Virus record (IMG/VR): IMGVR_UViG_3300047499_000102
Location: 1 to 64,000 of that record
DNA from: a virus
Length of the DNA: 64,000 bases
Reading direction: 5' to 3' (one strand)
This document shows, one piece after another, positions 28,888 to 33,308 of this stretch (position 1 is its first letter; every line of letters begins with the position of its first letter). The position numbers and the translations under genes were made by a program. Under the pieces are notes generated by a model that saw only the letters and a program-made list of their open reading frames with translations, made no database searches and was not told where the DNA came from.

Positions 28888-29373
28888 ATGGATAAAAAAG
28901 CGTTTCACTGGGGCCGTCAGCGTCGCCAGCGTGGCCGGCAAACCGATCACGATCGGTGACGCTCACGCTGACTACCCCGGAGCCCATCACTGCGCTGTCG
29001 CGTAGAGCCGTCGCGCAGATGACCCCCGCCCTCGCTCGCGGCCTCGCCCAGCTGCTCAACGCAGCGGCCGACCGCGCGGAGGCGCTCTGATGGGCACCGT
29101 CACCCGCTCCGCCGTCATCGCCGTGCTGCGAACGGTTCGCGACGGTCAGCGCCCGCCGTGCGACACCGTGCCGCAGATCGACGCCATCACGGCCGCCATC
29201 GGCATGGGCTGGCTCGAGACCGACGACGGGGAGAAGCACCTGCGCAGGTGGCGCCTGGAGCTCACCGACGAGGGGCGCAAGCAGGCGGGGCCGGTGCTAC
29301 GGTTGATCGCTGGGGGGCGGGGATGATGCTGACACCCGTGCGCCCGTCATTTTCGGAACGTGAAAGGACAACC

Positions 29374-30603
29374 ATGAGGATTGCAGCAGACGAGCTGAAG
29401 ACCATGCTGGAGCAGCACAAGCTCTGGAGAGATAGCGGTGGGGATCGTGGCGCACGCGCGAACCTCGCACGCGCGGACCTCGCAGGCGCGGACCTCGCAC
29501 GCGCGGACCTCGCACGCGCGGACCTCGCAGACGCGTACCTCGCAGGCGCGGACCTCGCAGGCGCGGACCTCGCAGGCGCGGACCTCGCAGGCGCGAACCT
29601 CGCAGACGCGAACCTCGCAGACGCGTACCTCGCAGGCGCGGACCTCGCAGACGCGAACCTCGCAGGCGCGAACCTCGCAGACGCGTACCTCGCAGACGCG
29701 TACCTCGCAGGCGCGAACCTCGCAGGCGCGGACCTCGCAGGCGCGAACCTCGCAGGCGCGGACCTCGCAGGCGCGGACCTCGCACGCGCGGACCTCGCAG
29801 GCGCGGACCTCGCAGGCGCGGACCTCGCAGGCGCGGACCTCGCACGCGCGGACCTCGCACGCGCGGACCTCGCACGCGCGGACCTCGCACGCGCGGACCT
29901 CGCAGGCGCGAACCTCGCAGACGCGGACCTCGCAGACGCGTACCTCGCAGGCGCGAACCTCGCAGACGCGAACCTCGCAGGCGCGAACCTCGCAGACGCG
30001 GACCTCGCAGACGCGTACCTCGCACGCGCGGACCTCGCAGGCGCGTACCTCGCAGGCGCGAACCTCGCAGGCGCGAACCTCGCAGACGCGGACCTCGCAG
30101 ACGCGTACCTCGCAGACGCGAACCTCGCACGCGCGAACCTCGCAGACGCGTACCTCGCAGACGCGTACCTCGCAGGCGCGAGAAACAGGCCCGCGTCGCT
30201 GGCCGACCACAAAGATCCCGAGACGCCATATGTGCGATCGGGGCGAGCGACGACTCCCGAGGCGCGACGGGCAGAACGCCTGGCCTCAGCGCAGCGGTAT
30301 CGCGAGCATCATCCCAAGGTGCCCGTTGTGGAGCGACTGGACGCGAAGATCCTCGACGCCGTATCTCTGCCTGGCAACGCGCTCAACATGGGCGACTGGC
30401 ACACGTGCGAGACGACACACTGCCGAGGTGGCTGGGCGGTGCATCTGGCGGGTGAGGCCGGGTACGCGCTGGAGGCCGAGTTGGGCTCCGCTGAGTCGGC
30501 AGCGCGAGCCATCTACCGCGCGAGCACCGGACGTGCGCCGCACTTCTACGCGACCAACGAGCGGGCACTGGAGGACATCAGGCGGTGTGCGGCAGAGCAC
30601 TGA
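29374..30603 (+). CDS. Pentapeptide-repeat protein with a C-terminal Cys/His domain
   Basis: A(D/N/Y)LA(G/D/R) x48; [14 protein letters not shown]. Confidence 0.92.
29458..30177 (+). repeat. 15-bp tandem repeat x48 (GCG[G/A/T]ACCTCGCA[GG/GA/CG]C)
   Basis: Directly visible; encodes the pentapeptides. Confidence 0.95.
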
Positions 30604-30638: not shown

Positions 30639-31247
30639 ATGAGCGATCGAATGCTGAAGGTCAAGGCGTGCGAGCACACGAGCCGCACTCTGGTGTTCTC
30701 GTCGGGCGAGGACGCCCCCGGTAAGTCGCTGGACACCTGCGAGCAGTGCAACACGTGTGGGGCGGTGATCCACGACTACCGCCACGGGGGCGGACTGCGC
30801 TCCCCGAACTACCCGATCGTGCGCGAGTCGCCGCTACTCAAGCCGTTCCTCGCGGTGTGCCAACAACTCATCGAGGCTGAGCGCGCCCTGGCCGGTCGAG
30901 GAATGTCGCTCACGCCGGACCTCGACATGATCCGACTCGCGAAGGAGAACGAGCGGCTTCGTCTGGACCTGGACGTGGCCGAGTCACGCAAGTCCGACGT
31001 CATCCGTCGGCTCGTCGAGGACGGCGACCGGATGCGATTGGTCCTGCACGATCTGGCGTTCGCGGCGCCGCACGTACTCGACGAGCACCGCGACCAGCGG
31101 GGGTGGCTGGGGCCGGCTGCGTGGGGCAAGTACGTCGCGCGCGTGCAGAAGATGGCGGGCGGCGCCATCCGGCGCCCACCAACGGACCTGGTCGCGAGCG
31201 AGGCACCTCCGCTGCGCCCGATCCGCGACGAGGAACCGGAGACCTGA
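30639..31247 (+). CDS. Hypothetical protein(s)
   Basis: AGGAGG RBS; ORF may be a fusion of two genes. Confidence 0.5.
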   Translation: MSDRMLKVKACEHTSRTLVFSSGEDAPGKSLDTCEQCNTCGAVIHDYRHGGGLRSPNYPIVRESPLLKPFLAVCQQLIEAERALAGRGMSLTPDLDMIRLAKENERLRLDLDVAESRKSDVIRRLVEDGDRMRLVLHDLAFAAPHVLDEHRDQRGWLGPAAWGKYVARVQKMAGGAIRRPPTDLVASEAPPLRPIRDEEPET

Positions 31248-31293
31248 CGAGATGCGGACCTTCATCAGATCTCCAGCGCGGAAACCCCGTCCT

Positions 31294-31465
31294 TTAGGGC
31301 GGGGAGGAAGCGCTGTCTCCGCGCTGCGCCTCCACGTAGCGTTTGACAATCTCCAGCGGCGCGCCGCCGCACGACATGGCGCAGTAGCTCGGGCTCCAGA
31401 AGTGCGGACCCCACAACTTGCGCTCCACCTCCGGGCAGATCCGCGGTCGGTGCGCACGCAGCATC
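31294..31465 (-). pseudogene. tnpA: TnpA (Y1 HUH transposase) C-terminal fragment
   Basis: KLWGPHFWSPSYCAMSCGGAPLEIVKRYVEAQ. Confidence 0.85.
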
Positions 31466-31574
31466 GCGACACTGACGAACCACTGGTCGCCGTCGCGCTT
31501 GAGGGAGCAGGTCTTCGGCTTCCCTTCGAGCGGACGGTGCATCACCGTGCGGAGCGTGCCGAGCTTCGGGAAGC
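31466..31574 (-). pseudogene. tnpB: Inverted internal TnpB fragment
   Basis: FPKLGTLRTVMHRPLEGKPKTCSLKRDGDQWFVSV. Confidence 0.8.
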
Positions 31575-31743
31575 GGAACACGCAATCCAACCCGTTTCCT
31601 GTTTCGCAGGGTGCCCAACTTCGGCGAGCCCTCCACAGGCAGTCGATGAACGACTTGCTCGCGGCCGCGGACGTGAAGATCCGCGAGCTCGAGAGCCAGA
31701 AGAAGAGCCTCGAAGCCGAGAACATCACCCTGAGGAACCGTCC

Positions 31744-32373
31744 ATGACCACCACGCCCGAGCACACCATCAAGGCCCTCTGCGAACGCTCCCACGCCATC
31801 TCCCTCGAGAAGGGCTGGGTCAGCGCGGAAGGTGACCCGCGCTCCTTCGCGTCCATCGCCTCGCTCAATCACAGCGAGCTGTCCGAGGCCTTCGAGGAGT
31901 ACCGCAACAACAAGCCGCTGAACGAGATCTGGTACGAGATCGAGACGGTAGGCGAGGGCGGCATCTGGTGCAAGACGTACGCCTCGCAGCTCAAGGAAGA
32001 TGCCGACCTCTCGAGGTGCAAGCCCTGCGGCATCCCCATCGAGCTCGCCGACTTCGTCATCCGCGTGGCCCAGCACGTGGGTACCTCCGGCAAGTCGGCC
32101 GCGCTCGAAGAGCTCTTCAACGAGCGCATCGGCGATGAGCACTACGCCGACTTCGACACCCTCATCGCCGAGGCCCACCTGGCGGTCGCGCTGGCCTACT
32201 CGTCGAAGACGATGGGGGAGGGGGACACGGCGTACCTCGCGCACCTCACCGACGCCCTCAGGGAGGTCTTCGCATTCTGCAAGGGCAAGGGCATCGACCT
32301 GTGGGCCGCCATCGACCAGAAGGAGGCCTACAACCGCACGCGTCCCACGAGGCATGGAGGCAAGAAGGTCTGA
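31744..32373 (+). CDS. MazG-like nucleotide pyrophosphohydrolase
   Basis: EKGW...LNHSELSEAFEEYR...KPCGIPIELADFVIR...IDL..AI..K..YN.TRP.RHGGK. Confidence 0.8.
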   Translation: MTTTPEHTIKALCERSHAISLEKGWVSAEGDPRSFASIASLNHSELSEAFEEYRNNKPLNEIWYEIETVGEGGIWCKTYASQLKEDADLSRCKPCGIPIELADFVIRVAQHVGTSGKSAALEELFNERIGDEHYADFDTLIAEAHLAVALAYSSKTMGEGDTAYLAHLTDALREVFAFCKGKGIDLWAAIDQKEAYNRTRPTRHGGKKV

Positions 32374-32375
32374 TG

Positions 32376-32578
32376 AAGAGCGCATCCACGGCGACATCTT
32401 CATCGACGATAAGTACGAGCACGTTCGCAGTTGGTTCGACTACTGGCTCAGCCAGAACAACGACTACGTCATCCCGGTGCTCTGGCAAACCGACCGCACG
32501 ATCAACACCGAGGTGGTGGATGGCGTAACCGTGGCCACCAACTGGAACCAGGTGGTCCAGCTGGTACACAACCAGTCG
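32376..32578 (+). pseudogene. C-terminal fragment of a HAD 5'(3')-deoxyribonucleotidase (NT5C-like)
   Basis: IHGDIFIDDK...V..W...N...NW.QV; the N-terminal DxD motif is absent. Confidence 0.55.
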
Positions 32579-32579
32579 T

Positions 32580-32756
32580 TGCACAGCGTGTGGCTACCAA
32601 GATCACGCTGACCTCAATGCTGCGAAGATTCTTTTTGCGCGTGCGAATCGCCCGGGACTGCCTGTGGAGGGCTCGCCGAAGTTGGGCACCCTGCGAAACA
32701 GGAAACGGGTTGGATTGCGTGTTCCACGTCGTCCTCTCGAAAGCTCCGCCCTTTAG
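32580..32756 (+). pseudogene. tnpB: TnpB C-terminal fragment overlapping the omega-RNA scaffold
   Basis: CTACGYQDHADLNAAKI (Zn finger plus RuvC-III). Confidence 0.85.
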
Positions 32757-32790
32757 GGCGGGGTTGATTACGCGACGTCTGCGGCTCGCC
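32650..32790 (+). ncRNA. TnpB omega-RNA scaffold plus flank-derived guide
   Basis: GCCTGTGGAG...GAAACAGGAA...right-end hairpin...TTAC, then a guide starting GCGACGTCTG. Confidence 0.7.
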
Positions 32791-32824
32791 GCACTCATCT
32801 GGTGGGGAGGGCGACCTCACCGCG

Positions 32825-33043
32825 TACCGCGACCCCAAGGTGTTCGCCGGGCACTCGCTGCGGGCTGGGTTCATCACGAGCGCGGCGAAGCGGGGCGCCT
32901 CGCTGCCGAAGATCATGCGGCAGTCGCGGCACAAGAGCGAGCGGATGGCGATGACGTACATCCGGCCAGCGACGCTGTTCGACGACAACGCGGCCGATGG
33001 GATGGGCGACGATGAGGACGAAGATGAGGACGAAGATGGCTGA
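32825..33043 (+). pseudogene. C-terminal fragment of a Cre-like tyrosine recombinase
   Basis: FAGHSLRAGFITSAA..GA....IMRQSRHKS......YIR...LF.DNAA. Confidence 0.85.
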
Positions 33044-33308
33044 GCGACCCTACTGCAAGAAGCACGACCGCTACCTCGTGAACGGCTCGTGCTCGTTCTG
33101 CCGGCTCGATTACGCGATTGAGGCTCACGAAACAGCCCGAGCGACAGGGCTACTCGACGATGACGGCGTGTGGGTGGACACGGGTGCCCCGGCGTCCCCC
33201 AAGGTGGTCGCCAAGAAGTCGAAACCGCTGCGCCCGAAACCGTAGGAGACAACCGTCATGGCGGAACACGAATGCAGCGGCAACACCTGTCCGGCTGAGC
33301 ACAAAAGA

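Follow-up and report, generated by a model that had tools for sequence, protein, structure and literature searches.

Background

Accounts of insertion sequences (IS) of the IS200/IS605 family usually assign them no genes beyond their own, and the non-autonomous members known so far, the palindrome-associated transposable elements (PATEs), are gene-less. Foreign DNA placed between intact ends, with TnpA supplied in trans, is familiar from laboratory mini-IS608 constructs. Here we analyze a natural case of foreign DNA between two intact IS200/IS605 ends, located at positions 31266-32771 of a 64,000-nucleotide stretch of viral DNA (the window), which is the first 64 kb of the 98,010-bp IMG/VR virus record IMGVR_UViG_3300047499_000102, rated 95% complete. 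The donor type of the foreign DNA can be recognized at 99% identity, and every junction can be read.

The closest described systems are IS605 and IS608 of Helicobacter pylori and ISDra2. The element in the window shares with them subterminal hairpins in direct orientation, a 4-nt guide 5' of each hairpin foot and insertion 3' of a fixed tetra- or pentanucleotide, and its native relatives carry tnpA and tnpB divergently, as IS605 does. It differs from these elements in that the window copy has no functional tnpA or tnpB, and in that its interior is rearranged and contains foreign genes. A further difference concerns the pair AAAG/TTAC, which is the documented left guide and target of IS608, whereas in the family described here it belongs to the right end, and TCAT is the target.

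A second point of comparison is provided by the ISGst elements of Geobacillus stearothermophilus (Meers et al., PMC10055086), whose documented transposon-adjacent motif (TAM) is TTCAT, the same pentanucleotide that precedes the element in the window. The ISGst system includes tnpA-less elements on which TnpA acts in trans, as well as PATE-like derivatives, and its right-end omega-RNAs direct TnpB to the site that an element has left; mini-ISGst laboratory constructs hold a marker gene between the left end (LE) and the right end (RE), with TnpA in trans (PMC10055086). However, the organism is unrelated, and ISGst elements carry tnpB, iscB or nothing, but no foreign genes. The laboratory mini-elements are engineered, whereas the capture seen here is natural, its donor-type phage is identified and it bears signs of illegitimate recombination. 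PATEs resemble the element in being non-autonomous, in keeping both ends and in often keeping the omega-RNA scaffold, and the family of the window's element includes such forms of 223 bp and 329 bp. PATEs are nevertheless short, gene-less and usually present in many copies, whereas the element in the window is 1.5 kb long, holds an intact foreign open reading frame (ORF) of 209 aa and is known from one site.

Comparison with relatives defines the ends of the element

We gathered relatives of the element by a peptide-seeded scan of metagenome contigs, which yielded 78 loci. Among these independent relatives, similarity to the window ceases exactly at TCAT in about 14 left ends and exactly at TTAC in about 27 right ends, and the outer flanks are unrelated; a few of the right ends show TTAC in a GTTTAC context. 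The boundaries named in an earlier reading of this DNA from its sequence alone (the original prediction), 31266 and 32771, are thus borne out, and this comparative divergence supports them much more strongly than either argument on which that prediction relied, namely guide pairing and an ORF restored by excision. The element is 1,506 bp long, lies 3' of TTCAT and terminates in TTAC. Across the left junction (31265/31266) GGACCTTCAT is followed by CAGATCTCC (TTCAT, then CAGATC), and across the right junction (32771/32772) GGGGTTGATTAC is followed by GCGACGTC (GTTGATTAC, then GCGACG). The TTCAT target site (31261-31265, plus strand) remains in the flank and holds the left cleavage site, with TCAT as its core; the flanks of the copies diverge upstream of TCAT, and the pentanucleotide is the TAM expected for a cognate TnpB.

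The left end (31266-31310, plus strand) consists of a 19-nt linker that includes the guide GAAA (31281-31284), followed by an adjoining hairpin (31285-31304). At the other end, the guide AAAG (32740-32743) adjoins a hairpin at 32744-32763, and TTAC occupies 32768-32771. Both subterminal imperfect palindromes stand in direct orientation on the top strand, have the loop TTTA in common and are conserved across the family copies, and there are no terminal inverted repeats. Pairing of such guides with the TAM and the transposon-encoded motif is general in the IS200/IS605 family (PMC10055086). In the present family the guides and the cleavage sites are both invariant among copies and hence give no covariation signal. 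Of the two pairings that the original prediction derived from this rule, AAAG with TTAC stands as the documented IS608 pair, whereas GAAA with TCAT fits by analogy only, the model being the right end of IS608.

The left end has 95-97% identity to its counterpart in an autonomous copy at locus L018, and several family copies agree with the right end in every one of its last 60 nt. Together with the comparison of relatives, these TnpA-type ends indicate a genuine TnpA-type insertion. The element belongs to the IS200/IS605 family, is of the IS605 type, and is a non-autonomous derivative and not an autonomous member.

The second argument of the original prediction, that excision restores an in-frame ORF, did not survive. 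The GC content at third codon positions (GC3) of the joined frame is 0.64-0.70, against 0.86-0.87 for the overlapping frame of an integrase remnant and 0.86 for the real upstream gene, and open frames of this kind are expected by chance in DNA of 68% GC, the value for the window. The insertion spot is non-coding, 18 nt past the stop of the gene at 30639-31247 and just before the integrase remnant. Two minor features cross the left end. A 373-codon open frame (31252-32373, plus strand) begins with an ATG in the left flank and runs through the left end and antisense IS pieces, in frame, into the MazG-like gene described below; it is probably a chance frame in DNA of 68% GC. The left-end hairpin is also the centre of a match to the Rfam HgcC RNA (31211-31308, plus strand), which at 19 bits stays below the threshold of 50.

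The interior is a patchwork of native, inverted and foreign segments

Full native copies of the family (L018:3482-5173 and L085:3509-5209) are 1,688-1,692 bp long; their tnpA (155 aa) and tnpB (400-405 aa) genes are divergent and overlap slightly. The native tnpA matches the NCBIfam IS200 transposase model (E 8e-41) and Pfam Y1_Tnp (E 7e-39), and the native tnpB matches guided_TnpB (E 6e-84) and has its stop codon inside the right-end hairpin loop. Aligned to these copies, the element in the window begins with the left end and tnpA tail (31266 to about 31446-31468; native ~1-181, forward). The tnpA stub (31297-31468, minus strand), which aligns to the L018 tnpA, retains only the C-terminal ~40-55 codons, so that the HUH part is gone (Pfam Y1_Tnp positions 84-121 of 121, E 3.9e-10); it is the sole Y1_Tnp match in the whole 98-kb record, in which no further tnpA or tnpB was found. 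A tnpB fragment follows (31472-31577, minus strand; ~codons 134-168; native ~969-868, inverted; phrog_506 positions 128-170 of 403), which is 93-97% identical to L018, L042 and L085 and has the opposite orientation relative to LE and RE. The left arm (31575-31645, minus strand; native ~1643-1574, inverted) duplicates 32655-32725, a part of the tnpB 3' end and right-end scaffold, as a reverse complement identical over 71 nt. Then comes the foreign cargo (31646-32576, 931 bp), which has no native counterpart. The native right part (32577-32771, plus strand; native ~1494-1688, forward) holds the last ~52 tnpB codons with their stop at 32754-32756 in the right-end hairpin loop, the scaffold, AAAG, the RE hairpin and TTAC; these last 195 nt form a single unbroken native stretch with 83-92% identity to many copies. 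Reading 32577-32730 as an N-terminal tnpB fragment is ruled out by the native copies, in which this segment is the tnpB 3' end.

The original prediction was therefore correct in taking tnpA and tnpB for stubs, and its ~930 bp of phage-type DNA correspond to the 931 bp of foreign sequence, but the interior did not arise by simple replacement, because two inverted IS segments are also present. The five internal junctions have only 0-3 nt in common (GGA between fragment and arm, C between arm and cargo, 1-2 nt elsewhere), and the junction between the tnpA and tnpB pieces cannot be placed to the base. Microhomology-mediated template switching is suggested by the five junctions with little or no homology, by the two inverted IS pieces and by the arm that the element copied from itself; the patchwork looks like the product of one or a few illegitimate template-switch repair events in which the genome of a co-infecting phage served as one template.

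The peptide PKLGTLR occurs twice in the TnpB of L085:3524-4741 and of L018:3497-4699, once around residue 136 and once in the C-terminal tail, which overlaps the guide-RNA scaffold. The two tnpB stretches that encode it resemble each other only in part at the DNA level. We considered recombination between them and ruled it out, as the junction falls outside both.

From an alignment of the right ends across the family we derived a consensus structure of 49 pairs; compensatory changes are seen at 19 of these, and all covarying stems fall within 32577-32771 and, there, within the last ~150 nt. The window keeps 44 of the 47 consensus scaffold pairs, compared with 39-47 in native copies, and this omega-RNA-like scaffold matches no Rfam family. 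The guide portion of a hypothetical read-through omega-RNA would occupy 32772-32791 (plus strand) in the flank, as suggested by its position 3' of the RE and by the TnpB mechanism in the literature (PMC10055086), and it would match the hypothetical empty allele beside TTCAT. Judged by sequence, all that TnpA and a guide RNA of TnpB would require is present.

A second phage type as the putative source of the cargo

The original prediction described the cargo as a gene tail, an intact MazG-like gene and a stub of NT5C, and this description holds in each part. The first part (31646-31747, plus strand) comprises the final 33 codons of an 81-aa coiled-coil gene of the donor-type phage, whose full form is found at the donor locus L005:5759-6004. 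The second (31744-32373, plus strand) is the intact 209-aa MazG-like ORF, which runs in the same direction as the flanking phage genes. The third (32373-32576, plus strand) is the remnant of an NT5C-like 5'-nucleotidase gene, aligned to L005:6630-7145. This remnant has a frame-shifting internal deletion of 304 bp at 32378/32379, which removes the N-terminal part of the protein including the DVDG motif and leaves the HAD-type (haloacid dehalogenase) domain incomplete; the final 8 nt of the gene are also gone. The intact donor protein matches Pfam NT5C (E 1.2e-10).

Two IMG/VR contigs, G001 (171 kb) and G002 (137 kb), match the cargo at 99% identity on both sides of the deletion (31646-32378 and 32378-32576). 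In these donor contigs all three genes, NT5C included, are complete and contiguous, whereas the window holds a partial first and a broken third gene, which argues that transfer went from the donor type of phage into the phage of the window. Neither G001 nor G002 matches the 20 kb that flank the element on each side, and neither contig contains an IS of the element's family. The GC content of the cargo is 62.9%, against 68% for the window; that of L005 is 64.2%. Capture of the cargo by TnpA is ruled out, as there is no TCAT or TTAC at the donor breakpoints.

Independent contigs span the junctions

We compared the window with independently assembled contigs (Logan, k=31) from the moss-metagenome datasets X1, X2 and X5; the runs that contain the element region are moss metagenomes. 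Contigs of X1 and X2 span the flanks, both IS junctions, every internal junction and the cargo deletion with zero mismatches. Those of X5, at ~3x depth, bridge every junction save that between arm and cargo, and leave 31610-31973 uncovered. The two 71-nt arms collapse into one separate unitig of higher depth (~2x in X2), which is what a true inverted repeat should give.

The metagenome origin of the record, an inverted repeat within the element and a donor-type phage from the same habitat (a 43-kb contig of this type is present in another moss run, X8) are all circumstances in which a chimera of assembly or amplification might be suspected. Such an origin seems to us extremely improbable, because the 0-3 nt in common at the junctions are too few for a mis-join in a de Bruijn graph, which can be excluded, because the junctions are identical (100%) in the contigs of X1, X2 and X5, and because the exact MazG allele is recorded on two contigs. 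With junctions bridged in three datasets, we conclude that the element is a real molecule and no assembly artefact.

Formation in place and movement as a unit

We think it fairly probable that the shell arose where it now lies and that it has yet to move as a unit. Its history would have begun with the insertion of an IS605-type element of ~1.69 kb by single-strand peel-and-paste 3' of TTCAT, the step to which the anatomy of the ends and the comparison of relatives testify. A break or replication accident within this element would then have been repaired by illegitimate template switching at the level of microhomology. During this repair a segment of tnpB would have been copied in inverted orientation, a snap-back on the element's right-end region would have copied 71 nt into the inverted arm, and ~1.2 kb would have been copied from an unrelated phage genome in the same cell, with 304 bp skipped. 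The outcome would be a non-autonomous shell of 1,506 bp that has no working tnpA or tnpB, keeps the TnpA recognition ends and the guide-RNA-like scaffold intact, and contains one intact foreign gene, encoding a dUTPase/MazG-like nucleoside triphosphate (NTP) pyrophosphatase. A patchwork of five junctions with inverted IS pieces fits such a repair accident better than the tidy gene vehicle that the original prediction had envisaged, and the element would then be a readable record of illegitimate recombination between co-infecting phages that placed a gene inside a transposon.

Several points weigh against formation in place by a single accident. The order of scrambling and insertion is undated, and a composite formed elsewhere could have been transposed in; the five-junction product could also stem from several separate events. 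The complete 195-nt right end and the complete gene could have been kept by selection and not by chance. Deletion derivatives of 223, 329 and 1,247 bp persist within the family, which indicates that its shells are not lost quickly and may be mobile. In addition, the k=31 contigs leave the orientation of the segment between the 71-nt arms unfixed, and both isomers may exist.

Two of the derivatives deserve a description of their own. The 223-bp form is a gene-less mini-element made of the left end and 77 nt of the right end, and is found twice (L066:603-829 and L072:4917-5143) with a common left flank and different right flanks; this points to rearrangement or recombination at the right end, and because of the common left flank the pair gives no clean proof of movement. 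The 329-bp form (L034:2750-3078) combines 46 nt of left end with 183 nt of right end, and the ~100 nt that separate the two have no match in any native copy.

The shell might instead be a working cargo transposon, a composite built elsewhere, in the host chromosome or another phage, and inserted as a unit by TnpA acting in trans. We regard this as possible though unlikely. With TnpB also acting in trans, RNA from the right end could cut element-free sister phages at TTCAT and the matching flank, and the cutting would drive the MazG-like gene into these phages during co-infection. The idea draws strength from the cis requirements, all of which are intact and match the family consensus, from the nearly native size of the element (1,506 against ~1,690 bp), and from the existence of non-autonomous derivatives in the family. 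TnpA is known to move tnpA-less elements in trans, and PATEs with omega-RNAs are also known (PMC10055086). Moreover, autonomous copies with 95-97% identical left ends are present in phage-like contigs from similar habitats. The autonomous copy in L018 lies between a gene for a RusA-like resolvase and one for an HslV-like peptidase and is therefore probably in a phage as well, and the IS family seems to be found repeatedly in phage-like DNA.

However, the shell is known from a single site, and neither of the traces of movement to which the original prediction had pointed, an empty allele and cargo-bearing copies at other sites, came to light. In IMG/VR there was no match to an exact 28-mer spelling out the predicted empty site, to a 30-nt probe for the left flank, or to a 31-mer across the junction of cargo and right end. 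Junction-keyed peptide scans of genome and metagenome contigs, collections that are incomplete, gave only ordinary family members. No contig of the examined moss runs skips 31266-32771, an observation of absence only, and the examined contigs contain neither the RE-LE circle junction (GTTGATTAC then CAGATCTCCAGC) nor the sealed donor joint (GGACCTTCAT then GCGACGTCTG). Useless inverted IS pieces and two broken cargo genes are also unlike the product of selection for a vehicle, and a perfect inverted repeat of 71 nt would be expected to fold strongly in a single-stranded intermediate. It is because of the single known site and the useless debris in the interior that we favor formation in place over a ready-made vehicle.

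Formation in place does not deprive the shell of its potential. Given the intact cis sites, it should in principle be mobilizable by TnpA in trans, and on sequence grounds it may be regarded as a legitimate substrate for TnpA and possibly also for TnpB supplied in this way. The element thus offers a concrete substrate for asking whether such shells move or home in trans, and its intact cis sites make the idea of a vehicle directly testable. If such shells move, they would provide a route of gene exchange between unrelated phages that does not depend on homology; if they do not, the element is an ordinary IS scar, though its interior is unusually informative. A broader proposal would be that phages have an undescribed habit of using emptied IS200/IS605 shells, with intact ends and scaffold, as small gene shuttles, which TnpA and TnpB supplied by further copies within one cell would move and home between co-infecting phages; in this instance they would be spreading a dUTPase/MazG-like gene captured from an unrelated phage. 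To this proposal we give rather little credence.

The cargo gene encodes a predicted NTP pyrophosphatase

The 209-aa protein matches PHROG pyrophosphatase families (phrog_3301, E 3e-30) and has no match among Pfam models at E<=0.1 or NCBIfam models at E<=0.01. About 100 homologs were found, most of them unnamed, and relatives in GenBank phages (27-36% identity) are annotated as MazG-like. Five acidic residues (E45, E48, E51, E100 and D103), which form a metal-binding ExxE...ExxD motif, are invariant among 45 homologs.

The AlphaFold2 model of the protein has a mean predicted local distance difference test (pLDDT) score of 94.7. In VIA-align comparisons it scores highest against dimeric dUTPases (5myd, Z 11.0, root-mean-square deviation 3.0 over 143 residues; 1w2y, Z 10.9; 2yay, Z 10.1) and lower, at Z 5-6.4, against chains of the MazG, HisE and YpjD types (MazG 1vmg, Z 6.4; further MazG and HisE chains, Z 5.0-5.6). 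A Foldseek search with the model returned nothing under E 0.3, and the sole match of a PDB sequence search, a cytochrome, was rejected as spurious. The protein has the fold and the acidic metal-binding residues of phage MazG-like pyrophosphohydrolases and dimeric dUTPases, and on the basis of fold and motif we assign it to the all-alpha NTP pyrophosphatase superfamily. It differs from the MazG family in lacking a Pfam or NCBIfam match, and with Z scores of 10-11 to dimeric dUTPases and 5.5-6.4 to MazG proper, the model appears structurally nearer to the former.

The gene is probably expressed by read-through, since it is co-oriented with the neighboring phage genes. Selection may have retained it for sanitation of the dNTP pool or for interference with alarmones or defence, with the IS remains being only the scar of its landing, although we consider this account improbable. 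In its favor, no other ORF of the patch is intact, none of the acidic residues that are invariant in its family has been lost, and the gene has the orientation of its neighbors; the reported roles of phage MazG-like enzymes include depletion of (p)ppGpp by Atd1. An anti-defence role is possible by analogy with Atd1, which is speculation. On the other hand, the protein is 99% identical to the donor alleles of L005 and L006, and all three of the differences change an amino acid, so there is no sign of purifying selection, although three sites are too few for a test. The partner gene NT5C is broken, and no promoter-like site was found in a promoter scan.

The surrounding phage DNA

At the DNA level, nothing in GenBank phages matches 31000-33100, and a search with the upstream flanking protein found no related phage. 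This upstream neighbor is a 202-aa ORF without a name (30639-31247, plus strand). The downstream neighbor is a C-terminal remnant of a tyrosine integrase on the plus strand (Pfam Phage_integrase positions 125-169 of 172, E 3e-4), which suggests that the phage may belong to an ex-temperate lineage. The remnant (32771-33043, plus strand) comprises only the C-terminal ~50-70 residues and ends in an acidic tail rich in D and E, and one contig of run X1 has a 12-bp length variant within it, at 33011. Two genes upstream of the element, a 481-aa ORF (29158-30603, plus strand) consists mostly of pentapeptide repeats (Pfam Pentapeptide, E 7.8e-52), and its product could be a protein of the DNA-mimic type.

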